Shown here piece after piece: positions 15,287 to 47,008 of a DNA stretch of 64,000 nucleotides (its first letter is position 1; each line of letters opens with the position of its first letter). The notes below the pieces were generated by a model, which saw only the letters and a list, made by a program, of their open reading frames with translations, was not told the DNA's origin and did no database searches. The translations under genes were made by a program, and so were the position numbers. This DNA is from Candidatus Undinarchaeota archaeon (GTDB lineage Archaea > SpSt-1190 > JASMDC01): positions 96,001 to 160,000 of the forward strand of contig CAZFHY010000004.1 in assembly GCA_964519305.1 (NCBI GenBank), written 5' to 3'.

Positions 15287-15319
15287 CATTTAAAAAACAT
15301 AGCCGCGTCCTCGTCCGCG

Positions 15320-16216: not shown

Positions 16217-16271
16217 GGACGCGCCCTCCACGAAAGACTTTAATGTTCTTCCCGCCAGCCCGGGCACTATC

Positions 16272-17411: not shown

Positions 17412-17442
17412 ACCAGTCGACGGAACGCGTATGTGATGGGCG

Positions 17443-20195: not shown

Positions 20196-20203
20196 ATAAG
20201 AAA

Positions 20204-20278
20204 TGCGACTGCCGGGATTTGAACCCGGGCAGCAGGCTTGGGAAGCCTGAGTCCTAGACCAGACTGGACCACAGTCGC
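20204..20278 (-). tRNA. tRNA-Gly(CCC), intronless, CCA not encoded
   Basis: GCGACTG/CAGTCGC acceptor stem, CAGGC-TTCCCAA-GCCTG anticodon arm, GGTTCAAATCC T-arm. Confidence 0.96.
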
Positions 20279-20405
20279 AACCATCTCCTTTCGATGAATA
20301 CATTAAAACCTTTTGGAAGGGCAGGAACGGACCGCGGCACTGGAATCTATTCGTACTCCTTTGAAGAAAGTGGGTATCGATACCAGTAGATTCGAAGGTC
20401 AACGA

Positions 20406-30890: not shown

Positions 30891-32702
30891 CTAGATGTCG
30901 TAGCTGACGTCCCGCTCCTGGATGGCCACGTCCACGGTGTCACCGTAGTTAGCGGCCAGCCGCTCGTGGAACGCCTCGAGCTGGTCAGGATCACCGTGCA
31001 CGAGGTGGACGTTGGGTGTCTGCCCGTACTCCTTCGAAACGAAGTCCGCATACGTGTCCACGCGCTCGTCCAGGTCGGACATGTCCGCATGCCCGCTGTA
31101 CAGGCCGTTGAGGGCCGCGGTCTCACTGTGCACGGGGTAGGTGCCCCTGATGTACTGCATGTCCTGGTTAGGCCCATCGCCCACGGGCTTGTTGAACCTG
31201 AGCGAGACAGTGTCCTCCCCGTCGAGGAGGGAGCGTCCGGGGGTTCCGTCGCCCTGGTAGCCGACCGTTATGACGGTGGCCGACGGGTCCATGAGCACCC
31301 GTGACGCATAGAAGGGGGACTTCCCTCCCGTGATCATGCCCGATGCCGCCAGGACGATCTTCACATCGTCCCTGGGCGGACCGTTCCTGTCGTCGATGTC
31401 GCGCGCCAGGTAGATATTGGGTGAGTCGAAGATATGCTTCATACCGAAGCGCTTGAGGTCCGCGTTCGTCTTGTCACTGTACTCCTCGCGGTGCTTGCTG
31501 TAGATCTCGGTGGCAGCCTCTCCCAGGGACGAGTCGATGACGAGCGATACATCCTTGGGGATCTGGCCTTCCTTCTGAAGTCGGATGATGTCCCAAGCGA
31601 CCTCTTGGAGCCGGTCCACTGAGAACACCGGAATGAGAACGTGACCCTTCTCGGCACCCAGAGGGTAGTCACCGCGTCCCGAAAGAAGGTCCTTGCTGAC
31701 CTCCAACTGGTCATTGAGCGCATCGGGACCGTATTCTTTTATGATCGCCCGTCGCTCCCGACCTCCGCGAGCATGGCGGAGCTTCTCCTCCATCTCGGCG
31801 AGGCGGGCCTCGACGTGCTTCTGATGCCCTTTTAGGACGCTCCTGCGTCCGCTGGTGTCCTGGGCATTCTGGTAAGCGGAGTTGAGGACGTCTGCGAGCT
31901 TGGACGTGTCCGACTTGTCCTGGTGCTCGCGGGCGCCGTATGTCGATTCGATGAGCATGATGTTCTCGGTGACATCCTTATGGATCCCGACATCCTCGGG
32001 CCGCAGGGGTTTGTACTCCGGGTCCTTGAGAATGGGATGTCCTCCCTTCCCCAGGTCGCCGGTGACGTACATGTAGGTGAGCTTCTCGCCCTCCTCGATG
32101 AACAGCTGGACCGATGATGAACCGCCGATATGGCCGGCGTTCTGGAACACGGCGGTGACGCGGTTGTCGCCCTTCTCAAGAGTGTAGACCTCCCCGCGGT
32201 CAATTGGATGGAACTGTCCGGCCAGGTCGTAGATGTCCTGCTCACCGTACATGGGCTCCTTGGTCCAGCCCTTCTGCTTGATGGGGCGTAGCTCGTTCAC
32301 CCGTTCACACTCTTGCTCCTGGATCCGGGCGGAATCGGCGTTGATCTCCTTGGCCAGTTCCAGGCTCGCAGGCGTGCCGACGACCTCGCCAGCGAAGCCT
32401 TCGTGAATGAGATAGCCCAACTTACCGCTGTGGTCGAAGTGAGCGTGGGTGAGCATCACGGCGTCCAGCTCCTGGTAGGGTACGCCGTTAGGTACGCGGT
32501 TGGTCTCGTTCCAGTGGCCGTCAGGGCCCTCTAGCTGGGATTCGAACCAGTTCTTGGTCGGATCGATCTTGTCGACACCCTTGCCTTGGAACATCCCCGC
32601 ATCGATGAGCAGTTCGATCTTGTCATCGCCCGTGCCCACCTCAAGGTAATGTTCGGACCCGGTTACGACGCCCGCAGCACCTTTAGAGGTCAGTTTCGCC
32701 AT
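30891..32702 (-). CDS. MBL-fold beta-CASP ribonuclease with insertions
   Basis: VTGS, THAHFDHSG, AGHI, TGD, IESTYG, SGMITGG, SGHAD, VHGD. Confidence 0.9.
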   Translation of the reverse strand: MAKLTSKGAAGVVTGSEHYLEVGTGDDKIELLIDAGMFQGKGVDKIDPTKNWFESQLEGPDGHWNETNRVPNGVPYQELDAVMLTHAHFDHSGKLGYLIHEGFAGEVVGTPASLELAKEINADSARIQEQECERVNELRPIKQKGWTKEPMYGEQDIYDLAGQFHPIDRGEVYTLEKGDNRVTAVFQNAGHIGGSSSVQLFIEEGEKLTYMYVTGDLGKGGHPILKDPEYKPLRPEDVGIHKDVTENIMLIESTYGAREHQDKSDTSKLADVLNSAYQNAQDTSGRRSVLKGHQKHVEARLAEMEEKLRHARGGRERRAIIKEYGPDALNDQLEVSKDLLSGRGDYPLGAEKGHVLIPVFSVDRLQEVAWDIIRLQKEGQIPKDVSLVIDSSLGEAATEIYSKHREEYSDKTNADLKRFGMKHIFDSPNIYLARDIDDRNGPPRDDVKIVLAASGMITGGKSPFYASRVLMDPSATVITVGYQGDGTPGRSLLDGEDTVSLRFNKPVGDGPNQDMQYIRGTYPVHSETAALNGLYSGHADMSDLDERVDTYADFVSKEYGQTPNVHLVHGDPDQLEAFHERLAANYGDTVDVAIQERDVSYDI

Positions 32703-32791: not shown

Positions 32792-32925
32792 TCGAGTGAT
32801 CATATGCGAGAGTGCCCTCCAAGTCCGGGTAAAGTGTCGATGAATGCGAGCCCTTGAGAGCTCCGGGCGGATGGCCGAGGATAACATTTATTAACGACCT
32901 TACCTGCAGGGGAGTACATCAGGCT

Positions 32926-33696
32926 ATGCCTGAAGGGGTAGTGGGTACAACGGACGTGAGCTATTCTCTCAACGGGCCGGAGCATGATGAACAGGACAAG
33001 AGCTCGGCCTATATCGATTGGGACCTCGACCGTGCCATCCATAAGGAGTCGTGGTGGGAGGACGACCAGGCCGAGATCAACGAGGCCCTCGCCGCCCCCT
33101 ACGGTGTCGGTCACAACGACCGGTACATCTGCATCGATGATGCATACAAGGTCAACATCGGCCGTGAGAAGTACCTGCGTATCGCCCTCGTTGAGTTCGA
33201 GAAAGGCGAGGACATGACCCCCTACCTCCAGGGCGACCGCGATGCATTCCGAGAGAAGATGAAGGAAGGCAAGTTCCGACAGATCGACATCGTCATGGAC
33301 TCCTGGAAGCCCTACGAGGACGATTTCGTCGCCGACGTCACCAACAAGGCCATCGCAGAGATGGCTCACGGTGAGGCCGTGGACATCTACGCGTGCAATT
33401 TCTTCAAGCCCTACATCGGCGGGCAGCACGACGACATCGTGTTCGCTTCGGGCCACAGGCGTAACCAGTACAGGCGGTACGTCAAGACCGCCGACGTGGC
33501 CACGAAGTGGATGGACGACGGCGAGCCCTCGCTCGCCGAGTTCGTTAAGGAGGTGGACAGGTTCTGGAAGGACAATCCCGGCGTCAGGGGCCATGAGACC
33601 TTCGACCTCAACGGGCGCACCGTCCATGTCTCTGATGAGGTGCGCAAGCACTACCACTCCCTCAACGAGGAGCCGGCCCACGCCCGTGCGGCCTAG
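32926..33696 (+). CDS. Hypothetical protein, diverged RNase H-like (paralogue A)
   Basis: YICIDDAY, VDIYACNFF, FASGHRRN..VKTADVA; own TTTATTAA box. Confidence 0.75.
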   Translation: MPEGVVGTTDVSYSLNGPEHDEQDKSSAYIDWDLDRAIHKESWWEDDQAEINEALAAPYGVGHNDRYICIDDAYKVNIGREKYLRIALVEFEKGEDMTPYLQGDRDAFREKMKEGKFRQIDIVMDSWKPYEDDFVADVTNKAIAEMAHGEAVDIYACNFFKPYIGGQHDDIVFASGHRRNQYRRYVKTADVATKWMDDGEPSLAEFVKEVDRFWKDNPGVRGHETFDLNGRTVHVSDEVRKHYHSLNEEPAHARAA

Positions 33697-33790: not shown

Positions 33791-34534
33791 ATGACCTACA
33801 TCCTAGATGAGGCCGATAGCGCCACGATGGAGACGGGAACAGCTTACCTAGAGCCCGTGCTCCCCCAGGTCCTCGGCCCAGGGCATCCCGACGAGACCGA
33901 CCCTGCCTGGATCGAGCGTCTCATCAAGCAGCCCTATAACGAGGGCCGGCGCGACCGGTACATCTGTATCGATGATGCCTACAAGGTGAAGATGGGCGAT
34001 GAGTGGTTCGTCCGTGTGGCCGTCGCATCGTTCGAGAAGGGTGAGGACATCAGACCTTACCTGTATGGGGACCAGGATGCGTTCAAGCGGAAGATGGAGG
34101 ACGGTTCTCTCCGTCAGATCGACATGATCATAGACTCGTGGGAACCCACTGAGGACTACTTCGTCGGCACCATGACACAGCGGGCCATCGAGGAACTGGC
34201 AGACGGTGAACGAGTGGATGTCTACGCCTGTAACTTCTTCCGCGACTACCTCGAGACCGGTCACCCTAACTATACGTTCGCCTCGGGTCACCGACGGAAC
34301 CGCCACCAGCGGTTCGTGAAGCTCGCCGATGCTGCAAGTAAGTGGATGGACAAGGACGAACCCGTGATCGTGGACTACGTGAACGCCGTAAGGGACCACT
34401 GGGAGGAGAATCCCCAGCTCAAGGGCGAGGAGTCGTTCACGTTCGGGAAGCGCGAGGTGCTGGTCTCTCCCGAGGTCCAGAAGCGGTACGACGGTCCTTT
34501 CCACAAGCTACGTTCTCTGTCCAAGGCAGCGTGA
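33791..34534 (+). CDS. Hypothetical protein, diverged RNase H-like (paralogue B)
   Basis: Identical DRYICIDDAYKV, YACNFF and FASGHRRN blocks shared with paralogue A. Confidence 0.78.
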   Translation: MTYILDEADSATMETGTAYLEPVLPQVLGPGHPDETDPAWIERLIKQPYNEGRRDRYICIDDAYKVKMGDEWFVRVAVASFEKGEDIRPYLYGDQDAFKRKMEDGSLRQIDMIIDSWEPTEDYFVGTMTQRAIEELADGERVDVYACNFFRDYLETGHPNYTFASGHRRNRHQRFVKLADAASKWMDKDEPVIVDYVNAVRDHWEENPQLKGEESFTFGKREVLVSPEVQKRYDGPFHKLRSLSKAA

Positions 34535-35123: not shown

Positions 35124-36458
35124 CTAAGGAGTCCGGACCTTCCAGATGCGCTTGCCCTTGTGAGCATCTTGGAGGTATGCCAGATAGGACGCGCACATCG
35201 CACGTCGCTCGGGGTGTAGCAGGTCGCGTACCGGGCACTGGTCCATGAGACCTAGGTCGATGACCGTCGGATCACAGAACGCCCCGAATGACAGGAGCAC
35301 CAGGTCACTGTCCAGGGATGTCTGCCGACCTACGAGGGCAGCGAGCACGCGCTGGAGGGCCGAGGCGCCGAGCCCCATGGCCTCGCGGCCGGTAAGGTGA
35401 GGCGCAGCCGCTGCCGACAGCCTGGCGGTCGCCAGGGCCGGGTAGGTGCTCCAGAGGTGCGCTGTCCGCTCCACGGCACTTGCGAGAGCGTCCACGTCCG
35501 CCACATCGTGCACAGGCACCAGTTCCTCCCCGTGACGCACCAGGGGATAGATAAGGTCTGCCGGGCACCAGCGCTGACCAGCTAGGCGAAGGAAGGCCGC
35601 TAGTACCTTCTGGAAGGCGACCACTCTTGCCATGGTCACCGCACCATCGGTAGATCCGGTGGCCAGAGCAATCAGCTCGTCTGGGCGCAAAGGCTGTACC
35701 CGTCGTTCCTTCGGTCCAGGTCGGAATGCGTATGACCGGAAGGAGATCCCCCGCACGCAAGGACTCCGTGAGGCAAGCTCCATGAGCATGCCGAAGGGAC
35801 GTTCGTTCACGCCCGACACCACAACTGACTCGATGAAGGCAGTGGCTCCCAGAGTGTCCAGATTGTCGAGTGCCGTGAGCTTGGCGTCCAGTACATCGGA
35901 TCCCCGCAGGCGGGCCAGGACGGCCGGATCAAGGGTGTCGAGCTCTAGTCGCACCTCGCGGACGCCGGCGTTCACAAGCGCCCGTGCATAGGCGGGATCG
36001 ACAAGCCTTAGGCCATTGGTGAACACGACGGGTTCGCCCCCGGCATCGCGTATAGCGGACACTATCTCGAACAGGTCCGCACGCTCAGTGGGTTCGCCAC
36101 CGAACACGCTCACACGGGGCGCATGCAGCCCCTCAAGTGCTGAGCGCACCTCGAAGACCGAGGGCTCATGGTAGCCGTCCAGACACTGGTTGGTAAAACA
36201 GGTGGGGCATTGCTCTTGGCACCGGGGAGTCACATAGAGAGAGTAGCTCTCCCCGCCGCCACGGCCCAGCCCGAGACGCTCTCGCAGAGGCAGCAGCTCG
36301 CGAAGTGCCATGCCTTCCCGGGCGAGGAGCACCTCTACGGGCCCATGGTCCTCGCATTCCTTTTCCATTACTACGATATCTCCCCGGTCGACTATGCGGG
36401 CCTCGACCTCCCGCAGGCAGGTCGGGCATACGCTCCGGGTGAGGCGAAGTAGTTCCAT
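35124..36458 (-). CDS. Radical SAM enzyme, tetraether lipid synthase (Tes)-like architecture
   Basis: TRSVCPTC..KECEDHG N-terminal metal site, CQEQCPTC, GGEPT, TNG; C-terminal FCD..D..C..C. Confidence 0.85.
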   Translation of the reverse strand: MELLRLTRSVCPTCLREVEARIVDRGDIVVMEKECEDHGPVEVLLAREGMALRELLPLRERLGLGRGGGESYSLYVTPRCQEQCPTCFTNQCLDGYHEPSVFEVRSALEGLHAPRVSVFGGEPTERADLFEIVSAIRDAGGEPVVFTNGLRLVDPAYARALVNAGVREVRLELDTLDPAVLARLRGSDVLDAKLTALDNLDTLGATAFIESVVVSGVNERPFGMLMELASRSPCVRGISFRSYAFRPGPKERRVQPLRPDELIALATGSTDGAVTMARVVAFQKVLAAFLRLAGQRWCPADLIYPLVRHGEELVPVHDVADVDALASAVERTAHLWSTYPALATARLSAAAAPHLTGREAMGLGASALQRVLAALVGRQTSLDSDLVLLSFGAFCDPTVIDLGLMDQCPVRDLLHPERRAMCASYLAYLQDAHKGKRIWKVRTP

Positions 36459-36490
36459 GAAGGCCCCTGAACAAGGATGGGCTCGACCCA

Positions 36491-36503
36491 TTTTTAAATC
36501 TTC
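36491..36503. promoter_or_regulatory. TATA box between divergent rSAM and carbamoyltransferase genes
   Basis: TTTTTAAATCTTC about 30 nt from both start codons; exact copy at 39149-39161. Confidence 0.6.
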
Positions 36504-36521
36504 GCGCACCTCTCCCGGTCC

Positions 36522-38192
36522 ATGCGTGTGCTGGGCCTCCAGGACATCAGCCACGACAGCTCTGCCTGCCTGGTCGAGGATGGGCGTGTGACCGCTGCGG
36601 TCGAGGAAGAGCGGTTCACACGTGTCAAGCACGCTGACGGCTTCTACTATGGTGGAGATCCCCCTGCCCACGCCATAGAGTGGTGCCTGCGTTCGCGTGG
36701 GCTGGACCTGGACGACGTCGACGCGGTGGCCCTCGGATTCGATATCGGGCTGGCAGGCTGGTACCGGATGACCTACGACGTGTTCCGGTACGTCAATGCC
36801 ATCGAGCCCATCGCCACAAAGGCCAGGGATCCTGACCGCCAGGACACCAGCAGCTATGTGGAGGGGCTCGTGGCCGGTTATCCCAGGCGGGTGCGCTGGC
36901 TGCGCGCTATCGCCAAGCGGGTCGGCCGCATCGTACATGTGCCACACCACACGGCGCACGCCGCGTCCGCCTACTACGCGTCAGGGTTCGATCACGCTGC
37001 GGTCCTCGTTATGGACGGCGCCGGTGAGCGCGAGTCGACATCCCTGTTCGTTGGTAGGGGTCGCGAGCTCGAGCTGATGGAGCGTCTGCCCATCAGCGGC
37101 TCTCTAGGCCTACTCTACGATCAGGTGACCCAGATACTGGGGATGGGCCAGTTCGGCGAGGGGAAGACCATGGGTCTTGCCCCGTACGGACGGTACGACA
37201 ACGTCCTTGGCCCCATGACAGACTATCGGCGCGGCCGCATGGTCATCAACAATGACCGGATCCGGGCCGCTCGCCGACTGACGCGGCACGATGGCAAGCT
37301 CACCGATGAGCACAAGAACCTGGCCGCCACGCTCCAGACCGACCTCGAGCAGGCCGCCCTCGCTCTCGCCGATCACATCTACGACCGAACCGGACTCAGA
37401 CGTCTCTGCCTTGCCGGGGGAGTGACGCTCAACTGCTCTATGAACGGTAGACTGCTGGGCAGCGAGCACGTGCGCGAGGTGTTCATCCAGCCCGCGGCCA
37501 ACGATGCCGGCTGCTCCGTAGGAGCGGCGCTCGTTGTGGCCGCAGAGGATGGAGAGCCCGCGTGGACCATGGCCCATCCTTACCTGGGTCCAGGCATAGA
37601 CGGTGAGGAGGCTGAGCGCGTGCTGCAGGAGGAGGGGTTCGATGTCGAGCGTGTGGACGATCCCGCTACCGTGGCCGCAGAACTGCTCGCCGATGGCAAG
37701 GTCGTCGGCTGGGTCCAAGGCGCTCTTGAGTTCGGGCCCCGGGCACTGGGCAACCGGTCCGTGCTCGCTGATCCCCGTAACAGGGCGATGCACACCCGTG
37801 TGAACGAGGTCAAGCGACGGGAGCAGTGGCGTCCGCTAGCGCCCTCCATCCTGGTCGAAGAGACCGGTAAGTGGTTCGACCGCAACGACCCGTCACCATT
37901 CATGCTTCTCACCTATGGTGTGCGCGAGGAGCGGCGCGATGAGGTGCCCGCTATCGTCCACGTGGACGGTACCGCGCGGCTCCAGACCGTAGACCGAAAG
38001 ACCAATCCCCGATACCACGCGCTCATCTCCGCCTTTGCTAAGGAGACGGGAGTACCGCTCGTGCTCAACACGTCGTTCAACGACCGGGGTGAGCCCATCG
38101 TACGGACCCCAAGGGAGGCGGTGCGCACATTCCGCAGCTCGGGGATGGACGTGCTGGTCATGGACGACCTGGTCGTGCAACAGGCAGGGTGA
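36522..38192 (+). CDS. O-carbamoyltransferase (CmcH/NodU/TobZ family)
   Basis: HDSSA, EEERFTRVKH, HHTAHAAS, DGAGE, EGKTMGLAPYG, EFGPRALGNRS, HVDGTARLQ, LNTSFN. Confidence 0.95.
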   Translation: MRVLGLQDISHDSSACLVEDGRVTAAVEEERFTRVKHADGFYYGGDPPAHAIEWCLRSRGLDLDDVDAVALGFDIGLAGWYRMTYDVFRYVNAIEPIATKARDPDRQDTSSYVEGLVAGYPRRVRWLRAIAKRVGRIVHVPHHTAHAASAYYASGFDHAAVLVMDGAGERESTSLFVGRGRELELMERLPISGSLGLLYDQVTQILGMGQFGEGKTMGLAPYGRYDNVLGPMTDYRRGRMVINNDRIRAARRLTRHDGKLTDEHKNLAATLQTDLEQAALALADHIYDRTGLRRLCLAGGVTLNCSMNGRLLGSEHVREVFIQPAANDAGCSVGAALVVAAEDGEPAWTMAHPYLGPGIDGEEAERVLQEEGFDVERVDDPATVAAELLADGKVVGWVQGALEFGPRALGNRSVLADPRNRAMHTRVNEVKRREQWRPLAPSILVEETGKWFDRNDPSPFMLLTYGVREERRDEVPAIVHVDGTARLQTVDRKTNPRYHALISAFAKETGVPLVLNTSFNDRGEPIVRTPREAVRTFRSSGMDVLVMDDLVVQQAG

Positions 38193-38193
38193 G

Positions 38194-39126
38194 ATGGACT
38201 CCCGGACATTGAAGGCCGGCATCCCGGTGACCATATCCCTGATCCTGCTCGTCCATGTCCTCCGGGACGTGAACCCTCACGGTGTACTCCAGCGTTTGGG
38301 CGGGATTGGTCTGGCCCCAATCGTTGCAGTGCTGGCACTCCAAGTGGCCATCATCATCATCATCTCTCTGCGGTGGCGGCTCATTATCCAACATACCGGG
38401 TGCGAGCTTCCCCTAAGCGAGGCCATGATGGTGTATGTAGGCGTCGCCCCGGCCGAGATAGTGCTCCCCGCCAAGACCGCCGATCTCATCAAGGCGAACT
38501 ACCTGCATGTCCACCAGTGTCTTCCCTTTTCGAAGGGCGTGTCCACAATCCTCTTGGATAACCTGTTCGACCTGGCGGCACTGATTTGCATTCTCTCACT
38601 GGGCGTGGCGGTCTCAGGTGAGGTCGTGCCCGGGCAGGCTGTCTGGGTGCTCGCGGGGGTCGGCACGCTGGTGGCAGGCGTAGCGGCCGCTTCCCGTTTC
38701 GTGGATCACCCGGTGTTCGCCAGCTTTCAGGCCCTCGGTCCCAGACTTATCGCCACGCTGTTCGTCCTCGCCCTGAGCGTCTGGTTGCTGGTGGTGGCCA
38801 GTGTCACGCTCTACTTTTCCATGGCGGACATAGACGTCCCCCCCACGGCGGTGATGCTCTATCTTCCCCTGACGGTGGTACTGGCCGCCCTCCCCATCAC
38901 CGTTGGTGGTGTGGGGAGCATGGAGTGGACCATGCGTCTGTTCTACGGTCGATTCGGACCTGTCGAGGCGATCATCACTGCCGCTGTGGTCCAGCGCTTG
39001 GTGACCACGGCCTTCCCCATCGTGGTGGGTCTGCCCATCATTTCCCGAGTAATCTGGTCCGACGCCACCGATCCGAGCGGTGCTCGGGCACTGTCCGGCG
39101 CTTTTGACGAGGAGGAAGAGGAATGA
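38194..39126 (+). CDS. Lysylphosphatidylglycerol synthase TM-domain / flippase-like protein (copy 1)
   Basis: SLRW, LPAKTADLIK, LPITVGGVGSME; coupled TGA-G-ATG. Confidence 0.85.
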   Translation: MDSRTLKAGIPVTISLILLVHVLRDVNPHGVLQRLGGIGLAPIVAVLALQVAIIIIISLRWRLIIQHTGCELPLSEAMMVYVGVAPAEIVLPAKTADLIKANYLHVHQCLPFSKGVSTILLDNLFDLAALICILSLGVAVSGEVVPGQAVWVLAGVGTLVAGVAAASRFVDHPVFASFQALGPRLIATLFVLALSVWLLVVASVTLYFSMADIDVPPTAVMLYLPLTVVLAALPITVGGVGSMEWTMRLFYGRFGPVEAIITAAVVQRLVTTAFPIVVGLPIISRVIWSDATDPSGARALSGAFDEEEEE

Positions 39127-39215
39127 GAACGGCTATCCCGCTACCCTCTTTTTAAATCTTCACGGCCCATCCGCACCCATGCAAGCCTCGGGACCTGGCC
39201 CCGGGAGGGCGTGAG

Positions 39216-40160
39216 ATGTCCAAACGCATCATCCGCACCATCTTCCCCGTGGCGTTCTCGATGTTCCTGCTGTGGTACACGCTCCGTAACATCGACCTTG
39301 TGGACGTACGCCAGCGACTGGCCTCCGTCGATCCAGTTTCCGTGCTCATCGTGCTCGTAATAGAGCTCGGGATCATCGCGATCCTTTCACTTCGATGGCA
39401 GCGCATCCTCCAGAACACGGGATGCACCATACCTGTATCAGAAGCGGTCATGGTGTACTGCGGTGCATCGCCCGCCGAGGTCATCCTACCCATGAAGACC
39501 TCTGACCTCCTCAAGGCCAACTACCTGCGTGTGACCCGCTCGTTCCCATTCGTAAAGGGCGTGTCCTCGGTGTTCCTGGACAACGTCTTCGACCTTGCTG
39601 CGCTCGTTACGGTCTCATTTCTGGGGCTCGCGCTCTCCGGCCATGTCCTGGGAACGCGGTTCACATGGATCCTCGGGGCGGTCTGCGTTTTCATACTGGC
39701 CGCTGCCGCTGCCTCGCGTCTTGTCGACCACCCCGTGTTCGCCAGTTTCCGCGCACTGGGACGACAGAACGTGCTCGAGCTCTACGCTCTGGCCCTCGCC
39801 GTATGGCTCAGCGTCTGCTACATGAACACCCTGTACTTCTCCATGGCGGGGATGCACGTACCGTTCACAACTGTCATGCTATATCTGCCGCTGACCATCA
39901 TGCTGGCCGCCGTGCCGGTAACCGTGGGCGGGCTGGGGAGCGTTGAATGGTGCATGCTCACGTTCTACGAGGGCCTGGGATCTCCCGAAGCCATCATCAC
40001 AGCGGACCTGCTCCAGCGTATCTTCGCCAGCGGGTTCCCCATGCTGATCGGTCTCCCTTTCATCGCCAGGGTCATGTGGCCCGAGGCACCGAAGGACGAG
40101 GGGGACGTTGCCCCTGAAACGGAAGAGGATTATGACGGGGAGGAGGGTGAGGAAGCGTGA
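39216..40160 (+). CDS. Lysylphosphatidylglycerol synthase TM-domain / flippase-like protein (copy 2)
   Basis: Close paralogue of copy 1 (KANYL, DNVFDLAAL, DHPVFASF); acidic tail. Confidence 0.85.
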   Translation: MSKRIIRTIFPVAFSMFLLWYTLRNIDLVDVRQRLASVDPVSVLIVLVIELGIIAILSLRWQRILQNTGCTIPVSEAVMVYCGASPAEVILPMKTSDLLKANYLRVTRSFPFVKGVSSVFLDNVFDLAALVTVSFLGLALSGHVLGTRFTWILGAVCVFILAAAAASRLVDHPVFASFRALGRQNVLELYALALAVWLSVCYMNTLYFSMAGMHVPFTTVMLYLPLTIMLAAVPVTVGGLGSVEWCMLTFYEGLGSPEAIITADLLQRIFASGFPMLIGLPFIARVMWPEAPKDEGDVAPETEEDYDGEEGEEA

Positions 40161-40960
40161 GCGACGAGAAGAGCACATCGACGGACGTTCCATGTGTCGT
40201 GCTCTACTCTGGCGGTTCCGACTCCACCCTCGCCGCCGTGCTCATGTCCCGTCGTTTCCATCCCGTTCACCTCCTCACCTACGACCGCCAGACCGTGCGC
40301 AGGGGTGTGCTCACATTCCCCGGGCTCCGCGACATATCCAAGTCGAGCATTAACGCCAAGCGGCTCGAGGAGGCGTTCGGGAAGGATCGGTTCGTCCATC
40401 ACATGAACGATTACACCGCGCTATTCCGCCGCATCGCCGTGGACGACGTGGACGCAGACCGGCGGCAGTTCGGCTCGCGCCTGTTCCTTTTGATCTGCAT
40501 GGGATGCAAGCTGGCCATGCATGCTCAGGCGATCGCCGACTGTCTCGAACTGGGTGTCCGACGCGTGGCCGACGGGGCCAGTAGGGAGGAGGCGTTCTAC
40601 CCGGCACAGACTCAGGGTGTCATGGACCGGCTCCGAGGTCTGTACGAGGAGCAGGGCATCACCTACGAGAACCCCGTCTACAGTCTTCCGAACAAGAACG
40701 CCGTGCACGATGCCCTAGAGGAGGCAGGCATCCGGATGGAGCGGCCCGCCGAAGGCGTGTTATCCCCCAGGCGCTACCGTGAAGCGTTCCTCTCGTTCCC
40801 CACCCAGGCATGGTGCTGGTTCGGGCTCCAAGCCGCCATGTACAACAAGTTCTACTACGGTCCGCTCCACGACAAGGACCGGGAGCCAGATGCCATTGCG
40901 TACATCGATGCCAAGATGGACGTCGTGCGCGAGTACCTTGAAGAGCGCGGCGTCAAGTAA
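40157..40960 (+). CDS. PP-loop ATP pyrophosphatase (QueC/ThiI-like superfamily)
   Basis: LYSGGSDS, CMGCKLAM, ADG, YENPVY, distal QAWC. Confidence 0.8.
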   Translation: MSDEKSTSTDVPCVVLYSGGSDSTLAAVLMSRRFHPVHLLTYDRQTVRRGVLTFPGLRDISKSSINAKRLEEAFGKDRFVHHMNDYTALFRRIAVDDVDADRRQFGSRLFLLICMGCKLAMHAQAIADCLELGVRRVADGASREEAFYPAQTQGVMDRLRGLYEEQGITYENPVYSLPNKNAVHDALEEAGIRMERPAEGVLSPRRYREAFLSFPTQAWCWFGLQAAMYNKFYYGPLHDKDREPDAIAYIDAKMDVVREYLEERGVK

Positions 40961-41065
40961 AAGTCAAGGTGAATATACGCATCACACCTGCGGAAACCCT
41001 CCCTTGCAGGAACCGGAACGGTCCCGCGGGAAGGTTTATAAGGCGGACACGGTGCCTGTCTGTTC

Positions 41066-41845
41066 GTGTACGACCTGGTGGAGCAGGAGGAGCTCGTGGC
41101 CCACGGACGGGAGCTCGTCGACTCGTACCTCGAGAAGGTGTACGGCGAGGGCGCGCCCGACGTGCCGGCCTACGTTCTCGACTCCAAGCAATTCCACCGC
41201 AAGGCACAGCGGGACCCGTTGGAGCTTTCTGGTCGGGTGGAGGTAGGCTTCTACAGCCCCCACCGCAACCTATTGCAGGGGATGCACAAGGCCGTGTACC
41301 TTGAGGACCAGGACGAGCACCGTGAGAAGTGCGTACCACGCTATCAGCAGATGCGTGACCAAGCTGCGGACGATACGTGGGACACGGGGCGCGCCGCGGC
41401 CATCGACCGCCAGCTCGCCTTCTGGGAGGCCATGACCCCCGAGGTCGTAACCGTCCACGAGTACGGCCATGTATTCCTCGACGACTATACGGGCAATCCG
41501 ACATGGAAGGACGAGCACACGTCCGAGGGATTTGCTACCTTTACTGAGATGGCAGTGCTCGAGGGCTCGGGCTACTTCGACGAAGATTATGTCGCGTCGT
41601 ACAAGGCCGCCCGGCTCCCCGCTCTCATGGACTCCCAGCGGGAAGGGATGGCGAAGTTCCAGCGCCTATGGGAGGAGAGCCCGTCGCCCGAGTTCTTCGC
41701 TGCCTCGGTCAAGCGGCTGGGAGAGCGCAAGGGCTGGTTCTCCCGCGTGTGGATCGACGACTACATGACGGCGCTCGACGATGTGTCGCCCGAGGAACTG
41801 GCCGCTGCCAGCGACATGTGCGAGATCGTGATTCGAGATCGGTGA
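41066..41845 (+). CDS. Putative gluzincin metallopeptidase
   Basis: VHEYGH and downstream SEGFATFTE; TTTATAA box upstream. Confidence 0.65.
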   Translation: MYDLVEQEELVAHGRELVDSYLEKVYGEGAPDVPAYVLDSKQFHRKAQRDPLELSGRVEVGFYSPHRNLLQGMHKAVYLEDQDEHREKCVPRYQQMRDQAADDTWDTGRAAAIDRQLAFWEAMTPEVVTVHEYGHVFLDDYTGNPTWKDEHTSEGFATFTEMAVLEGSGYFDEDYVASYKAARLPALMDSQREGMAKFQRLWEESPSPEFFAASVKRLGERKGWFSRVWIDDYMTALDDVSPEELAAASDMCEIVIRDR

Positions 41846-41852
41846 GCTCGCC

Positions 41853-43016
41853 GTGGACCTCTCCGCCCGCGCCCCCTATGCAATTCTTGCCTCCTACTGG
41901 GGCATGTACGCCATCATCATCCTCTTCTTCTCCCTCCACCTCCGCGAGATCGGGGGCAGCTATCTCCACGTGGCGTCACTGACCACGGTGATGGCGCTGG
42001 CCACCTTGCTAGCCGTGAACGTCTGGACCGCACTGCGTGACACCTACGGACGCACTCGTCCCTTCCTCGTTGCGGGGACGATGGCAATGGTCCTCACCAT
42101 GGCGGTGCCGTTCATCGTGACCAGCCCCGACTCCTTCGTAGTTATGGTGGCCGCGCTCGCCCTGGTGCACTGCAGCGTCAATCCCCTGGTAAACGCCTAC
42201 GTCACAGTCACATCCGGAGTGTCCTCGGGAGAGGCGGCCGGTGACCTCCAGACTGTCGGCTCCGGTGGTTTCTTCGCAGCGTCCCTTATCGGTGGTTTCC
42301 TATACGGGATGGGGGGCGTCAACGCCACCGCCATCCTCGGTCTCGTGGGATGCGGTACGGCCGTGATCCTGGCGCTCCTCATCGAAGAGGACGGTCACGG
42401 GGAGCAGCAGGTCGGCGGTATGGACCTCTCCTTCATCTTCTCCAATCGTGCTCTGATGGCCGTGTGCACCATCGGTCTCCTCCTCAACGCCGCCCGGTTC
42501 GGGTTCAGTTCGCTATTCCCGCTATACTTCATCTCCATCGGGGGGAGCGGCTCATGGCTCGGGTACCTTAACGCCACCGCCACGCTCCTTGCCGTGCTGA
42601 GCGCCCGTCGCATCGGGAGGATGGTAGGCTCCGGCGGCGGGATGACCTTCATGCTGGCCGGCATCAGCGGGTACCTTGTGGTGTTCCTCGGGATGCTCGC
42701 GCTCCCCATGCTCCCTGAAGCGGGCATGCGGCTCTGGGCCGTCATGTTGATGTGGGCCGTCCCCATGTACGTGCTCGTGGAGGTCCCCACGATCTCGCTC
42801 GTGGCCAATCACACCAGTGAGGAGGAACGGGCCCGCGGCATGGGGGCGCTGACCTTCGCCTACAACGCTGGTGCCGTCATCGGCCCGCTCGCGACCGGCT
42901 TCCTGGCGACACGCACCGGTGACTTCACACCGGCCATCGCCTTCGCGGCCGTGGTGACCGCGCTCACGCTCGCCTACGGTGGGTTCGCGCTGCCCCGGGA
43001 ACGTGAAACGGACTAG
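41853..43016 (+). CDS. MFS transporter
   Basis: About 12 TM; DTYGR loop, ERARGMG, GAVIGP. Confidence 0.9.
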   Translation: MDLSARAPYAILASYWGMYAIIILFFSLHLREIGGSYLHVASLTTVMALATLLAVNVWTALRDTYGRTRPFLVAGTMAMVLTMAVPFIVTSPDSFVVMVAALALVHCSVNPLVNAYVTVTSGVSSGEAAGDLQTVGSGGFFAASLIGGFLYGMGGVNATAILGLVGCGTAVILALLIEEDGHGEQQVGGMDLSFIFSNRALMAVCTIGLLLNAARFGFSSLFPLYFISIGGSGSWLGYLNATATLLAVLSARRIGRMVGSGGGMTFMLAGISGYLVVFLGMLALPMLPEAGMRLWAVMLMWAVPMYVLVEVPTISLVANHTSEEERARGMGALTFAYNAGAVIGPLATGFLATRTGDFTPAIAFAAVVTALTLAYGGFALPRERETD

Positions 43017-43024
43017 CTCCGCGT

Positions 43025-44110
43025 TCAATGTCCCGGGAGAAAATCACGATAGTAGCAGGTTAGGTCAGTGCACTCCCCACTGTACCCTTGACGGAAGGTG
43101 CGACGGGTGCGGGTGTAGAGCGCACTGTCGGGGATCGTGTCGTCCTTCGCGGCCTTGAGGATGTCGGTGATGAAGCGCACGTCCTGGAGCTTGCGGGCCA
43201 TGTCGTTGGGCCGGCCGTCGATCTTGACCGCAGTGATCCCTGCCCTGAGGAGCGTTCGGAGGACACAAGCTCCGCAGTCCACACCGGTCTTACCACCGAA
43301 GTGGCCTCCCATCCGTTGTCTGGCCGCGGCCATCCCCTCCAATGGGACGCTACCGATCGTCACTGGTGATACATTGTAGTCGAGCAGGCATGGTGCAGGC
43401 CGGAGGCCGGGAAGACGGCGCACATGCCGCAGCGCACGCTTGGGGACGAATTTGGCCGCCTGCAGCGCCCATCGACTGTTGAGGAGGCCGAACCCGATGC
43501 GCCCCGTGAGCGGCCGGACCGCTTCGTCCATGCCGTCCACGAAGGTGCAGAACCCGTCGACGTTCACGCACCGGTTGTTTAGCACGAACACCTCCAGCTC
43601 CACGGGCGAGTCGCGTGCCAGTGCCACGATCTCCTCGGGAGTGAGCTGCTGTGGCAGCACCACACGGCTGGCGCCCAGGCCCTCGTAGAACTCCAGAGCA
43701 GCACTGTTGAAGGCGGGAGCGATGGTGCTCACATGGAGACGCACGTCCGGATGCTCGGTCCGTGCACGGACCATGGTGGGCACGTCGGCGATTAGGAATC
43801 CGTCCACGCCCGCGTCAGCAGCAGCGTCCATCAACCGGCCCAGATGCTCGCGCTGGCGGTGGGTGTAGTAGTCGAGGTTGAGGGTAAGGGTCACCGGCGC
43901 CTTTCGTTCGTGAGCGCGGTCCACGGCATCCTTGAGCTCTTCTAACGAAGGGAAGTTCGCACCAACAGCGGGCTCCTGGTTGCCGGCCACGAGGGTGGAG
44001 AAGGCCTTGCGCCAGTCGGCGGTCAGCACTCCTGCATAGAAGGCGGTGGCTCCGGCATCCACCAGGGGATCCACCTCGAAGGCACGAGTGAGCGGGGAGA
44101 GGACCTCCAC
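43025..44110 (-). CDS. U32 family Fe-S protein (peptidase U32 / O2-independent hydroxylase-like); start approximate
   Basis: VLSP..AGA..FYAG, HVSTI, RVVLP, RCVNVDGFC, CGAC, KIDGR, terminal CYY. Confidence 0.85.
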   Translation of the reverse strand: MEVLSPLTRAFEVDPLVDAGATAFYAGVLTADWRKAFSTLVAGNQEPAVGANFPSLEELKDAVDRAHERKAPVTLTLNLDYYTHRQREHLGRLMDAAADAGVDGFLIADVPTMVRARTEHPDVRLHVSTIAPAFNSAALEFYEGLGASRVVLPQQLTPEEIVALARDSPVELEVFVLNNRCVNVDGFCTFVDGMDEAVRPLTGRIGFGLLNSRWALQAAKFVPKRALRHVRRLPGLRPAPCLLDYNVSPVTIGSVPLEGMAAARQRMGGHFGGKTGVDCGACVLRTLLRAGITAVKIDGRPNDMARKLQDVRFITDILKAAKDDTIPDSALYTRTRRTFRQGYSGECTDLTCYYRDFLPGH

Positions 44111-44162
44111 GTCTGGAAGGGCGACGCCAACCTTGATAAAGGTACGCGGGGAGAACGGGAGC

Positions 44163-44597
44163 ATGCTGATCACCGTCTCCGGCCTCGGGTTCGCGGCCTC
44201 CCACTTCCTGGCAGGCCATCCCACGTGCGGGCGCCTCCACGGCCATAACTACCGCGTCGAGATCGTGTGCGAGGGCGAACCTGACGACAGGGGCATGGTG
44301 GCCGACTTCCACGTGATCAAAGCGGCCGCTGCTACCGTGCTCGATGAGGTGGACCACCGGACCCTTCTTCCCGGGGAGAACGACGAGATCAAGATATCGG
44401 TCGAGGGTGACGAGGTCAGGGTCACGGGCTGCAAGACACTAGTGCTCCCACGCGAGGACGTAGTGGTGCTGCCTGTGAGGAACACGACCTGCGAGGAGCT
44501 GGTTAAATGGCTCCACGGCAGAATGGCAGAACACATCCCCTCCCTTGTGAACGTCAGGCTGTGGGAGAACGAGCGCTCGTCAGCGGCATATCCCTAG
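44163..44597 (+). CDS. queD: 6-carboxy-5,6,7,8-tetrahydropterin synthase (QueD/PTPS family)
   Basis: FAASH, CGRLHGHNY, DH, TTCE, LWEN. Confidence 0.88.
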   Translation: MLITVSGLGFAASHFLAGHPTCGRLHGHNYRVEIVCEGEPDDRGMVADFHVIKAAAATVLDEVDHRTLLPGENDEIKISVEGDEVRVTGCKTLVLPREDVVVLPVRNTTCEELVKWLHGRMAEHIPSLVNVRLWENERSSAAYP

Positions 44598-47008
44598 GTT
44601 ATGATCCCATGCCGCAGGCCCAGGAGGGCGAAGTTGGCGGCGAAGTGGAACATTATCGGTACGGCCAACGAGCGTGATCTCCTTAGAAGGATCCCCGCTG
44701 CGTAACCGAACAGGGCGAGCATGATGAACACCATGGGAGAGATGCTCTTTCCAAAGTGGGCAGCAGCGAAGAGCAGTGCCTGTATCGTGCACGCGAGCTC
44801 GAACGGGAATGCCTTGGCCAGTGAGTGCAGGAGCGCGCCACGGAACCACAGTTCCTCGGCAACTGCGGTGAATGCTGCGGTGATCACCACCCAGAGGACC
44901 AGGTTCGAGCCCCTGGGAAAGAGGAGCGTGGGCTCCCTCAACTCTTCGCCGACATATCCCCATGCCAGACCGAGAATCAGGGCACCGATGACGAAAAGAA
45001 GGGTGGGCCGCTCAAGGTACCCCTCCCGTCCCGCGATGATCACGTAGGGGAGCGACGCCTGGATGACCACAAGGTTCGCCAACAGCGTCCCGAGATGGAT
45101 GGAGATGCCGAACAAATCACCGGTGAACACCGACACGAGTATGTGGAGGAGAAGGAGGATGAGGAACACGGAGAAGCCCTCCATGGCGTGCGACAGCCTT
45201 TTCGTGAACACGCCCCGGCACCCGAGCGACCAGAACGAGAGGACGTATAGGAAGGCGATTAGCAGCATGAACTGGGAGAGCCCCGGGGTCCCATATCGAA
45301 GGATTGCTGTGTACCCGGTGATGCCCAACGCGATCCAGGCGAGAACGAAATTGTCCTCGCCGCCACCGATGAAATCCCTGGAGATCCATTGCCCCGCATG
45401 GTACAGGAAGAGCGGCAGGGCGCCCAAGTAGAAGGCGGCCGACACGACCAGCAGGTCGGCGAAGAACTTGGTAAGCATCACCCGTGTGAGGGGTTTGAGC
45501 GAGGGCGCCCACCGGAGGTTGAGCGTGTTCTTCACATTGCCCACATGTGCCTCTATCTCCGAGAACCCGTAGAGCACGGTATAGTTGGTTATGTAGAGCA
45601 TGGACATGCTGAACAGCAGTAAGTACACGATCCAGCGACGCTCCTCTTGCCTGGCCAGGGCATGGAACCCGAGGATTAGCACCATTGTGAGGATGAGGAG
45701 GCTGGTGACGTCCAGCGGGATTGTCATCCCGAAGAGGGCTGGCGCGTCGGTTATGAGCTGGGTCCGCATGTCGACGCCGATGATACCCGTCTGCGGATTG
45801 ATACGCCGCAGCGTGATCCATGGGTTGAAGAGGAAGGTGAGGACAAGCGCGCACGCCACTCCCATCATCGGGGCGTACGACTTCACCTGTTCAAGGCGCT
45901 CGCCCTTCACATCCATCATCATGAGCAGCCATATGCCCATGGGAAGGAGGAGCAGGAGGAACAGACTGATCACACCGATGGCATACAGGAAGACGGTGAA
46001 CCAGAGCTCCGCCCCCTGGTAGCGGATCGTCTCCGAATAGAGGAGGTGACTGAGCGGCTCGTGATGCTCGAGACAGACGTCCTTGTACATCTGAGCCTGC
46101 GCGGGGCCCAGGCCCCTGCCGCGGGGCGAGCAGAGCACGTTCATGTAGAACGGATCGAGCTCGCTCCCCAGCACGTACGGGATGAGGAAGTAGCCCGCGT
46201 CGGCCAGACCACGGGATATGAGGATGACGGACAGTCCCAGATGGAACAGACGGGGGGTCGTGAACAGCTTGGCGATGGTGAAGATGAAAGAGCGCTCCAT
46301 ATCGTCGATCTGGTTGGCGAACCCCGACGCGGATATCTGCTCGGAGAAGTGGAGGAAGTAGAGCGTGGAGATGAGGAAGAGCGCCTTGTCCACCGACGTT
46401 ATCATCCACTGGGTGATGGGATCGAAGATGATCAGGAAGAACGCGATGAGGATGTAGTAGGAGAGGAGGTAGCGCGCCAGGACCATGAGCAGTGATGCTT
46501 CTTTCCCGTCCAGGTGCTGATCCAGCGGAGAACGGGCAAAACGCTCCCAGACCTTGTCCACATCCACCGAACGCACGTTGGCGAGCGCTGTCAGTATAAT
46601 GTGGACCACTGAGTACAGCACACCCGGCCGGTCGAACGTGAACGTGATAGCGATATAGATGCACACGAGGTTGAGGATCACCTGGCCGAACACGAGCGAG
46701 TCGAACAGGAGGGTCGCCCGCCAGGCCTTGCTGATCTGGATGAGGTCCGTGGATGATTCCAGGGTGAGGACGTGCTTGAACGCGATCACGTAGAAGGCAA
46801 GCAGGATGAACTTGTTCAGGCGCCAATCCTCGCGGCCGAACACGTTCTCGGGCAGGTCGAACTCGTACCACAGGATGACGAGCATGAGGTAGGCCAGCGT
46901 CTTCTCGAACAGGTCGAGCTCGGGTGTTAGGAGTCCTAGGAAGTCGCCCATGGCAAGGAGCATACCCGAGATTATCAGGAAGAAGCCTACTAGCTGCCGG
47001 GGCTCCAT
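44594..47008 (-). CDS. Large polytopic membrane protein with C-terminal CPBP (Abi/CAAX) protease domain
   Basis: EELWFRG, FAAAH, HFAANF in the last ~110 aa; many upstream TM segments. Confidence 0.8.
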   Translation of the reverse strand: MEPRQLVGFFLIISGMLLAMGDFLGLLTPELDLFEKTLAYLMLVILWYEFDLPENVFGREDWRLNKFILLAFYVIAFKHVLTLESSTDLIQISKAWRATLLFDSLVFGQVILNLVCIYIAITFTFDRPGVLYSVVHIILTALANVRSVDVDKVWERFARSPLDQHLDGKEASLLMVLARYLLSYYILIAFFLIIFDPITQWMITSVDKALFLISTLYFLHFSEQISASGFANQIDDMERSFIFTIAKLFTTPRLFHLGLSVILISRGLADAGYFLIPYVLGSELDPFYMNVLCSPRGRGLGPAQAQMYKDVCLEHHEPLSHLLYSETIRYQGAELWFTVFLYAIGVISLFLLLLLPMGIWLLMMMDVKGERLEQVKSYAPMMGVACALVLTFLFNPWITLRRINPQTGIIGVDMRTQLITDAPALFGMTIPLDVTSLLILTMVLILGFHALARQEERRWIVYLLLFSMSMLYITNYTVLYGFSEIEAHVGNVKNTLNLRWAPSLKPLTRVMLTKFFADLLVVSAAFYLGALPLFLYHAGQWISRDFIGGGEDNFVLAWIALGITGYTAILRYGTPGLSQFMLLIAFLYVLSFWSLGCRGVFTKRLSHAMEGFSVFLILLLLHILVSVFTGDLFGISIHLGTLLANLVVIQASLPYVIIAGREGYLERPTLLFVIGALILGLAWGYVGEELREPTLLFPRGSNLVLWVVITAAFTAVAEELWFRGALLHSLAKAFPFELACTIQALLFAAAHFGKSISPMVFIMLALFGYAAGILLRRSRSLAVPIMFHFAANFALLGLRHGIIT

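Follow-up and report, generated by a model that had tools for sequence, protein, structure and literature searches.

Several described systems resemble parts of a locus in a Candidatus Undinarchaeota archaeon (contig CAZFHY010000004.1), which lies at positions 35124-44597 of the 64,000-nucleotide (nt) stretch analysed as a whole and hereafter called the window. YcfA, which acts in the 6-thioguanine pathway of Erwinia amylovora, is reported to adenylate the amide carbonyl of guanine nucleotides and to add cysteine sulfur, and the lyase YcfC to finish the thioamide begun by YcfA (PMC12494993). Stand-alone flippases of the MprF type are reported from the lipid head-group operons hexSDF (PMC10128005) and gpgSDF (PMC12713373), and a preprint describes a NodU-like enzyme that N-carbamoylates an amine (PMC13174530). 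In the archaeal locus, relatives of YcfA, of these flippases and of NodU are encoded within a few kilobases of each other.

A sequence-only reading of the locus had joined nine genes into a single anaerobic pathway that would hydroxylate, carbamoylate and flip a membrane lipid or surface glycan. All nine genes were found where that reading had placed them, in the order given and with Pfam and NCBIfam matches to the families named. We argue for a smaller unit, the five-gene core at 35124-40960, which encodes a radical S-adenosylmethionine (SAM) enzyme, a carbamoyltransferase, two flippase-like proteins (Flip1 and Flip2) and a PP-loop enzyme; whether these five genes form the functional unit is, in our judgement, an evenly balanced question. 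To the proposal that the core tailors a membrane head group or a lipid-linked glycan, by carbamoylating it, activating it with ATP, exchanging an oxygen and flipping the product, we attach about as much weight as to its opposite.

The core is like MprF and the hexSDF and gpgSDF operons in that a cytoplasmic head-group enzyme is encoded together with an MprF-type (UPF0104/LPG_synthase_TM) flippase-like protein. It differs from these systems by the absence of an aminoacyl-phosphatidylglycerol (PG) synthase domain, of a glycosyltransferase and of a deacetylase and by the presence of two tandem flippase paralogues, its modifying enzymes being a carbamoyltransferase and a PP-loop ATPase. The carbamoyltransferase shares the two-domain Kae1-like/YrdC-like architecture of NovN, TobZ, GdmN and NodU, whose contexts are antibiotic or Nod factor formation, whereas its own context is one of membrane and glycan genes. 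The radical SAM enzyme has the N-terminal zinc ribbon and radical SAM core of Tes and GDGT-MAS (7tol), but reaches a quarter of the Tes cut-off (112 vs 450 bits) and about 22% identity to GDGT-MAS. The parts are from known superfamilies and their arrangement resembles known lipid head-group operons, while there is a real chance that the chemistry is new. The literature searched gave no description of the carbamoyltransferase/PP-loop pairing. The sequence-only reading had not recognised its full combination of genes from any characterised archaeal pathway.

Comparison with a relative labelled Candidatus Undinarchaeales (locus L001) indicates that the nine genes are real, since all nine open reading frames (ORFs) are intact there and under purifying selection (pN/pS 0.11-0.26). 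The same genes are contiguous and syntenic in L001, with 87-94% protein identity and 87-91% nucleotide identity. The long starts listed for the radical SAM (36959), U32 (44224) and QueD (44046) ORFs are probably not used.

The five-gene core and its PP-loop enzyme

The features of the core, in window coordinates, are as follows.

35124..36458, minus strand: radical SAM enzyme of the Tes/GDGT-MAS (HMPTM) superfamily, 444 amino acids (aa), with Zn_ribbon_HMPTM and Radical_SAM matches
36491..36503, no strand: copy 1 of a 13-nt TATA-like element that separates the radical SAM start from that of the carbamoyltransferase
36522..38192, plus strand: NodU/CmcH/TobZ-family carbamoyltransferase, 556 aa, with Carbam_trans_N and Carbam_trans_C matches
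38194..39126, plus strand: Flip1, stand-alone MprF-type flippase-like membrane protein, 310 aa, LPG_synthase_TM match
39149..39161, no strand: copy 2 of this 13-nt TATA-like element, between Flip1 and Flip2
39179..39214, plus strand: possible leaderless mini-ORF of 11 codons, from sequence reading and comparison with L001
39216..40160, plus strand: Flip2, tandem paralogue of Flip1, 314 aa, LPG_synthase_TM match
40157..40960, plus strand: YcfA-like PP-loop ATP pyrophosphatase, 267 aa, from profile comparison with the PDB and Foldseek

The most informative gene of the locus is that of the PP-loop protein, to which the sequence-only reading had assigned no specific role. The protein carries SGGSDS at residues 18-23, and Pfam and NCBIfam models cover only its 30-residue PP-loop (DUF7411, 29 bits; QueC of Pfam, 18 bits); no literature on DUF7411 was found. 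A word-indexed search of 5.8 billion proteins yielded 19 relatives. An exhaustive search with a profile, covering 1.84 billion representatives, yielded 839 at E<=1e-3, a number that falls to 566 when the limit is E<=1e-10 and to 222 clusters when it is E<=1e-30. When a 20-sequence profile was compared with the PDB, YcfA (9kq6) was matched with an E value of 4e-26, the next family being QueC at 1e-4. Foldseek likewise matched the AlphaFold model (pLDDT 87) to YcfA with template modelling (TM) scores of 0.71/0.86 and an E value of 7e-14, and QueC, MnmA, ArgG (argininosuccinate synthetase), the nitrile synthetase ArtA, TilS, TtuA and LarE reached a TMq of at most 0.49. The SGGxDS loop and PP-loop fold of YcfA are thus shared, with D22 kept in 158/166 family sequences, and YcfA (9kq6 and related entries) is by a wide margin the best match. 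Judged from its sequence and modelled fold, the protein is YcfA-like, neither a QueC nor a tRNA enzyme, and YcfA is its closest characterised relative.

Housekeeping of tRNA or cofactors unrelated to any surface pathway, such as a divergent deazapurine route made of QueD, QueC-like and QueE-like proteins beside a U32 RNA hydroxylase, is an explanation to which we give hardly any weight. The PP-loop motif does give weak QueC matches (Pfam 18 bits, TIGR00364 20 bits) and a QueD-family gene lies 3 kb away, but the QueC equivalog score is 20.4 bits against a cut-off of 150.3 and covers residues 13-43 only, and YcfA is a far better match. The radical SAM enzyme matches Tes and TrsS, with no QueE model among the best 25 of its 27 NCBIfam matches, and the recurrent linkage to carbamoyltransferase and glycan genes described below fits tRNA chemistry poorly. 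The possibility that each gene has its own known tRNA or cofactor function, raised together with the sequence-only reading, is not borne out for the core, as the radical SAM, PP-loop and U32 proteins all fall below the cut-off of every named tRNA or cofactor equivalog. PADLOC gave no defence family either, apart from a generic 29-bit match of the radical SAM core to pVip (viperin-like), and a defence-system reading was rejected on that account.

Conservation within the PP-loop family suggests both a substrate site related to that of YcfA and a different supply of sulfur. The substrate-binding F132-P133-E134-Q135 of YcfA aligns with Y148-P149-A150-Q151 of the window protein, so that both have an aromatic-P-x-Q motif, and the glutamine is kept in 138/166 and the aromatic residue in 99/166 family sequences. 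The L-Cys-binding Y128/Q129 of YcfA is not kept in the family. Reciprocally, of 166 family sequences 156 have Cys114, 155 have Cys117 and 152 have Cys220 (about 92-94%), whereas in YcfA the first two are missing where the proteins align, the alignment stopping before the third. Three conserved cysteines, with no fourth, are the signature of TtuA, TtcA, NcsA and LarE, the [4Fe-4S] PP-loop thiolases. The family has its CxxC about 90 residues after the PP-loop and the third cysteine about 100 residues further on, a spacing that we take to be theirs as well, and the triad is a candidate [4Fe-4S] site. In fold, TtuA (TMq 0.39) and LarE (0.43) are distant matches at ranks 42-43, and the TtuA/TtcA/NcsA/LarE enzymes act on tRNA or a cofactor, whereas a membrane or glycan substrate is proposed for the family described here.

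The carbamoyltransferase has both domains of its family, with Carbam_trans_N at 182 bits (cut-off 24) and Carbam_trans_C at 241.5 bits (cut-off 27), and its solved relatives are NovN (9s2t, 347 bits), TobZ (about 320 bits) and GdmN (about 311 bits). It is not a NodU equivalog (186 bits vs cut-off 1000). Because N-carbamoylation is reported for a NodU-like enzyme, either O- or N-carbamoylation could take place here. Flip1 and Flip2, which are 51% identical, match LPG_synthase_TM (PF03706; 103 and 112 bits vs cut-off 33.4) and TIGR00374 (53.2 and 50.9 bits vs cut-off 43.2); neither has a fused aminoacyl-PG synthase domain, the bifunctional MprF model NF033480 giving 24 and 48.5 bits against 600.

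The radical SAM enzyme matches Zn_ribbon_HMPTM (PF23545) at 58 bits and Radical_SAM at 53.8 bits. Among NCBIfam models TrsS (128 bits vs cut-off 490) precedes Tes (NF045702, 111.6 vs 450), and by sequence the enzyme is not an orthologue of Tes. C11/C14/C35 of the zinc ribbon and C80/C84/C87 of the CxxxCxxC motif are invariant in 6 sequences, so that both the ribbon and the radical SAM core are recognisable, and pN/pS relative to L001 is 0.15. Its best solved relative is GDGT-MAS (7tol, E 1.7e-25), which Foldseek also ranks first (TM 0.58, about 22% identity), from a poor model (pLDDT 61; alignment of 6 sequences) with values below 50 at residues 43-97 and 395-444. The C-terminal 100 or so residues are unmatched to GDGT-MAS and the model is unreliable there. 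At least 6-7 close homologues are present among the matches listed. TrsS was dropped as a functional lead despite being the top NCBIfam name; it appears only in a table in PMC13188914, as an uncharacterised selenoprotein.

In the sequence-only reading the radical SAM gene shared one TATA box with a single coupled run of four genes, from the carbamoyltransferase to the PP-loop gene. A TATA-like element is indeed present at 36491-36500, flanked by the two divergent start codons (36458 for the radical SAM enzyme, 36522 for the carbamoyltransferase). Of the 13-nt element the 64-kb window holds exactly two copies, where 0.01 would be expected, and both are kept in L001. More generally, TTTAWATA (at most 1 mismatch) occurs 23 times in the window vs 8.4 +/- 3.0 in shuffles, none of 100 of which reaches 23, and a scan for bacterial-type promoters and terminators remained at or below shuffle expectation. 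The run itself is better described as two coupled pairs behind twin promoters, since the carbamoyltransferase stop is 1 nt from the Flip1 start and the Flip2 and PP-loop genes overlap by 4 nt, but an 89-nt gap containing copy 2 of the element parts the pairs. The carbamoyltransferase transcript is probably leaderless, because the ATG follows the A/T core of copy 1 by only 21 nt. A mini-ORF begins with an ATG 20 nt after copy 2, a spacing that matches that of the carbamoyltransferase ATG from copy 1, and ends 1 nt before the Flip2 ATG. It is found in L001 (about 9029-9064) with 4 nucleotide differences, 3 of them synonymous, and, as far as the sequence suggests, may be a leaderless mini-ORF for re-initiation.

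Recurrence of the carbamoyltransferase/PP-loop pair

The PP-loop peptide pattern of the family, run in one scan against 185,579 species genomes, gave 13 loci. L013, which matched the 30-residue motif only, was set aside, and L010, a 2.1-kb contig, is too short to judge, so that 11 of the 12 remaining loci can be evaluated. In 11 loci 130 ORFs, chosen by length and, where GC content is high, by third-position GC, with overlaps dropped, were scanned with Pfam. A carbamoyltransferase homologue was found by tblastn within 10 kb of the PP-loop gene in 7/12 loci (L001, L003, L004, L006, L007, L008 and L009), and in L003, L006, L007 and L008 the two are immediate neighbours or have a single small gene between them. 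The two genes therefore do co-occur beyond the window, the point on which a neighbourhood search with the PP-loop protein was to bear. The linked loci span archaea and bacteria, and in a tree of the 12 sequences their PP-loop genes occupy at least four separate deep, well-supported branches, interleaved with unlinked ones. By tblastn the radical SAM enzyme has homologues in L001 and L009, and the flippases, HExxH, major facilitator superfamily (MFS), U32 and QueD proteins in L001 only.

The gene order around the pair varies with the lineage. In L003 (Thermoplasmatales) a deacetylase, a HemK-like methyltransferase, the carbamoyltransferase and the PP-loop gene are contiguous on one strand, the deacetylase scoring 275.9 bits against the 276.2-bit cut-off of an XrtA-system model. 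The PP-loop gene of L004 (Methanotrichaceae) shares its strand with a deacetylase and a methyltransferase, and the adjacent carbamoyltransferase converges from the other strand. The bacterial loci L006-L008 have, after a GDSL-like gene in some arrangements, the PP-loop gene, a small two-helix membrane protein and the carbamoyltransferase. In L009 (Nanoarchaeota) the PP-loop gene is accompanied by a gene of no assigned family, a B12-radical SAM gene, the carbamoyltransferase, a methyltransferase and an HMPTM-type radical SAM gene, with glycosyltransferase family 2 (GT2) and hexapeptide acyltransferase genes flanking; its radical SAM enzyme of the same type as that of the window (a TrhS-like pattern, TrsS 167 bits and Tes 151 bits) lies 0.9 kb from the carbamoyltransferase. 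Across loci the neighbours include XrtA-type polysaccharide deacetylases, GT2, SGNH/GDSL, MBOAT and GT-C-like proteins. As an observation in its own right, L009 holds six radical SAM genes within 15 kb (3768-18536) around the pair, two with Pfam B12-binding domains, two of B12 type by NCBIfam only, one SPASM-type and one HMPTM-type; with its GT2 and hexapeptide acyltransferase genes the cluster is unusually radical-rich and glycan-like. A 264-aa protein encoded after the PP-loop gene in L009 (P0020) was tried as a U32 relative on a single BLASTP comparison (E 0.048) and rejected, having no Pfam, NCBIfam or PDB support.

Four of the 11 evaluable loci (L002, L005, L011 and L012) have no carbamoyltransferase within 10 kb, and the PP-loop family is thus not strictly dependent on that enzyme. 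In these loci, from various organisms, SGNH/GDSL, MBOAT, GT2, GT-C-like or AsnB genes stand beside the PP-loop gene. The two enzymes could accordingly work independently, each on its own group of one shared surface glycan or lipid, for instance one on a sugar hydroxyl by O-carbamoylation and the other by converting N-acetyl to acetimidoyl or thioacetyl, or by amidating a uronic acid (WbpG/PseA- or AsnB-type). Such a division of labour would be in keeping with the many deacetylases and the frequent N-acetyl-sugar chemistry of the linked loci, and also with the weak match of the L009 PP-loop protein to WbuX, an N-acetyl sugar amidotransferase (20 bits vs 203). Yet the pair persists, often adjacent, in at least four deep lineages while other tailoring genes change, no HisH/HisF-type ammonia-delivery genes were seen in the loci, and the group on which YcfA acts is an amide in a ring rather than a carboxylate. 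We consider independent action possible but rather unlikely.

Fusions and small membrane proteins tie the PP-loop family to membranes and, in one case, to sulfur. P0141 (874 aa) joins a Wzx/MurJ-type polysaccharide flippase to a PP-loop domain with intact cysteine motifs, and 16/23 N-extended PP-loop homologues (picked from the list) begin with a hydrophobic helix. The small conserved two-helix membrane ORF between the PP-loop and carbamoyltransferase genes (L006 2525-2863, L007 10742-11080, L008 10739-11086) has an LP-aromatic-R motif that reappears in the N-terminal extensions of P0078, P0094, P0107, P0148 and others, and is probably the module's third component. In P0136 the PP-loop domain is fused to a 2-thiouracil-desulfurase (DUF523/TudS-type) domain, which links the family to thiocarbonyl chemistry. 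YcfA itself partners purine metabolism, whereas here the partners are a carbamoyltransferase and membrane or glycan genes, and many PP-loop members are membrane-anchored. The YcfA system moreover includes a YcfC-type pyridoxal phosphate (PLP) lyase; none was found in any of the 13 loci, and no aminotransferase class V or desulfurase-like domain is present among the window ORFs or the 130 ORFs of the 11 loci.

These fusions also bear on the idea of a small-molecule cluster, in which a soluble metabolite would be carbamoylated, thio-modified and exported by the MFS protein, as compared with novobiocin, tobramycin and 6-thioguanine. NovN, TobZ, GdmN and YcfA all make soluble antibiotics, and the MFS gene lies only 0.9 kb downstream. 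A scaffold-forming gene is absent, however, and the enzymes share translational coupling with two flippase-like membrane proteins. Members of the PP-loop family carry membrane anchors or, in one fusion, a Wzx-type flippase, and the MFS gene is separately promoted and not conserved beside the pair; the one other MFS_1 protein among the related loci is 7 kb away in L008. We hold a soluble product to be very unlikely.

Genes beyond the core

The other four genes of the sequence-only reading lie immediately downstream, with promoter marks of their own.

41036..41042, plus strand: TTTATAA, separate promoter mark for the HExxH gene, from the sequence
41066..41845, plus strand: soluble HExxH (gluzincin-like) protein, 259 aa, weak Peptidase_M1 match
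41853..43016, plus strand: MFS transporter, 387 aa, MFS_1 match
43025..44107, minus strand: U32-family protein of a putative iron-sulfur (Fe-S) enzyme class, Peptidase_U32 match
44131..44142, no strand: A/T-rich near-palindrome, candidate shared TATA, between the divergent U32 and QueD starts
44163..44597, plus strand: PTPS/QueD-family protein, 144 aa, PTPS match

The HExxH gene is preceded, 24 nt before its start, by a TTTATAA of its own. Its product has a weak Peptidase_M1 match (18 bits), no NCBIfam family, a marginal M1/zinc-protease match in the PDB (E 0.014) and Atlas matches to unnamed clusters. The MFS protein (MFS_1, 88.7 bits) has an orthologue only in L001 among the loci seeded on the PP-loop gene. 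The HExxH and MFS genes are separately promoted neighbours whose membership in the system is unsupported. The U32 gene, on the minus strand, converges with the MFS gene and shares a short divergent region with QueD. Its product scores 100 bits with Peptidase_U32 (cut-off 22.4) but only 103 bits with UbiU (cut-off 440) and 56.7 with TrhP (cut-off 534), belongs to generic U32 clusters in the Atlas and has no solved relative by sequence. In the comparison with L001, pN/pS is 0.76 in the upstream extension of this ORF vs 0.11 in its core, and the shorter start is therefore favoured. The QueD-family protein, with C-x3-HGH in its translation, reaches 87.5 bits with PTPS (cut-off 22.4) and 71.7 bits with TIGR03367 (cut-off 89.25). 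No literature linking U32 with QueD was found, and the two are a separate, unrelated divergent pair, not supported as members of the system.

That all nine genes form one pathway, with U32 as an O2-independent hydroxylase and QueD included, is therefore a quite improbable reading. The genes are contiguous and syntenic in L001, but L001 is so close at the nucleotide level that this synteny weighs little. By gene content the window is archaeal and from an anaerobe, encoding RFC, FEN1, HerA-NurA, anaerobic ribonucleotide reductase (NrdD) and pyruvate:ferredoxin oxidoreductase (POR), and a C-x6-C motif is visible in the U32 translation, which we take to be like that of UbiU. Against a nine-gene pathway, U32, QueD and HExxH are found in 0/11 other loci (tblastn; Pfam on the 130 ORFs), where U32, PTPS and LPG_synthase_TM domains are absent from the scanned ORFs; promoters are separate and different, so that the nine genes are not one operon; and L001 carries an unrelated 1.3-kb insertion between the PP-loop gene and HExxH. 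With U32 found, among the loci compared, only in L001, and placed with QueD in a divergent unit, the hydroxylation step is unsupported, as is the membership of U32, QueD and HExxH, while the carbamoyltransferase/PP-loop module, with its glycan and lipid neighbours and membrane fusions, is supported. The L001 insertion itself (10827-12087) contains small paralogous ORFs of 70 and 92 aa on the minus strand and a 192-aa protein with helix-turn-helix (HTH) and nucleotidyltransferase regions, and looks like a small mobile or toxin-antitoxin-like cassette.

Elsewhere in the window (GC about 60%), a third, distant LPG_synthase_TM gene lies at 4998-5963 (minus strand), its product being 26% identical to Flip2, and tandem geranylgeranyl-reductase paralogues lie at 7789-8955 and 8977-10143 (both plus strand); these are more lipid-handling genes, 25-30 kb from the cluster. 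An 804-aa membrane protein with a CPBP/Rce1-like intramembrane protease domain at its C-terminal end is encoded at 44594-47008 (minus strand), and a 1117-aa protein with a hydrophobic-looking first half, a soluble C-terminus and no Pfam or NCBIfam family at 48611-51964 (plus strand); both may be cell-envelope proteins. The beta-CASP/MBL nuclease at 30891-32702 (minus strand) has the type VII CRISPR-associated Cas14 model as its best NCBIfam match (200 bits vs cut-off 800), ahead of archaeal aCPSF1 (139 bits), and no PADLOC match. The adjacent paralogous ORFs at 32854-33696 and 33791-34534 (both plus strand; 280 and 247 aa) have long conserved stretches in common, and Pfam, NCBIfam and PADLOC assign them to no family. 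Neither an Rfam family nor a tRNA was found in the locus, and a tRNA-Gly (CCC) at 20203-20279 (minus strand) is the sole RNA gene detected in the window.

A proposed split head-group machine

The tailoring proposed for the core would take place on the cytoplasmic face, on a polar-lipid head group or a polyprenyl-linked sugar that would then be moved outward. First, by analogy with the chemistry of its family, the NodU/TobZ-type enzyme would use carbamoyl phosphate and ATP to carbamoylate the acceptor at a hydroxyl or an amine. Second, the YcfA-like PP-loop enzyme would adenylate the oxygen of an amide-type carbonyl, most probably the carbamoyl just added, and a nucleophile would replace the oxygen. 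Sulfur is our first choice, delivered through the three-cysteine site as a TtuA/LarE-style [4Fe-4S] cluster or a persulfide, with a thiocarbamate or thiourea as the expected product; nitrogen, from which a guanidino or amidino group would result, comes second and elimination to a cyano group third. Third, the tandem flippase-like paralogues, each coupled to one soluble enzyme, would hold or flip the lipid, in an arrangement that looks like MprF, or the hexSDF and gpgSDF operons, split into parts. Finally, the Tes-superfamily radical SAM enzyme, divergently encoded from the same promoter region, may add a further radical modification.

We favour sulfur because the nearest relative makes a thioamide and the cysteine triad is thiolase-like, and because a desulfurase-type fusion exists (P0136) while no glutaminase gene is adjacent in 11/12 loci. 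Nitrogen remains plausible since deacetylase neighbours fit it and the known cargoes of MprF-type flippases are cationic; the guanidino group would then arise by an ornithine-citrulline-arginine logic.

Several observations weigh against this proposal. The core contains no acceptor-making gene such as a glycosyltransferase or lipid synthase, the solved carbamoyltransferases nearest to that of the window act on soluble antibiotics, and tblastn and Pfam found no MprF-type flippase gene in the related loci besides L001. The sample is 12 loci from one peptide pattern, seeded on the PP-loop gene alone, four of them (of 11) without a carbamoyltransferase, and the radical SAM linkage comes from a single independent locus, L009. 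As for the chemistry, the L-Cys-binding Y128/Q129 of YcfA correspond to E144/E145 in the window protein, with glutamine at the second position in only 33/166 family sequences, and the general base E134 is replaced by A150, glutamate being present in only 54/166. No sulfur-donor gene (desulfurase, ThiS-like or rhodanese) was seen in any locus, and the three cysteines could bind zinc instead of a cluster.

If the proposed tailoring is true, thiocarbamoyl or guanidino groups would join the known groups of cell-surface lipids or glycans, and the recently solved YcfA thioamide family would extend from a soluble antibiotic pathway into membrane biology. Its sulfur delivery would differ from that of YcfA and would probably be Fe-S-based, and a rare PP-loop family without an assigned role would gain a function.

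A bolder version, which we think unlikely, is that a reduced and probably host-dependent DPANN-type archaeon has membrane chemistry of a kind not known before, in which a new Fe-S-dependent branch of the YcfA family turns a carbamoyl on a lipid head group or lipid-linked sugar into a thiocarbamate or thiourea, or else a guanidinium, in a "split MprF" machine, each flippase paralogue partnering one soluble enzyme and the acceptor perhaps being a lipid scavenged from the host. In that event the carbamoyltransferase/PP-loop module would mark an unrecognised and widespread modification of glycans or lipids in archaea and bacteria. Undinarchaeales are reported to be without complete lipid synthesis (PMC7414124), and head-group remodelling in these archaea would be relevant to the adaptation of borrowed membranes by symbionts of this kind.

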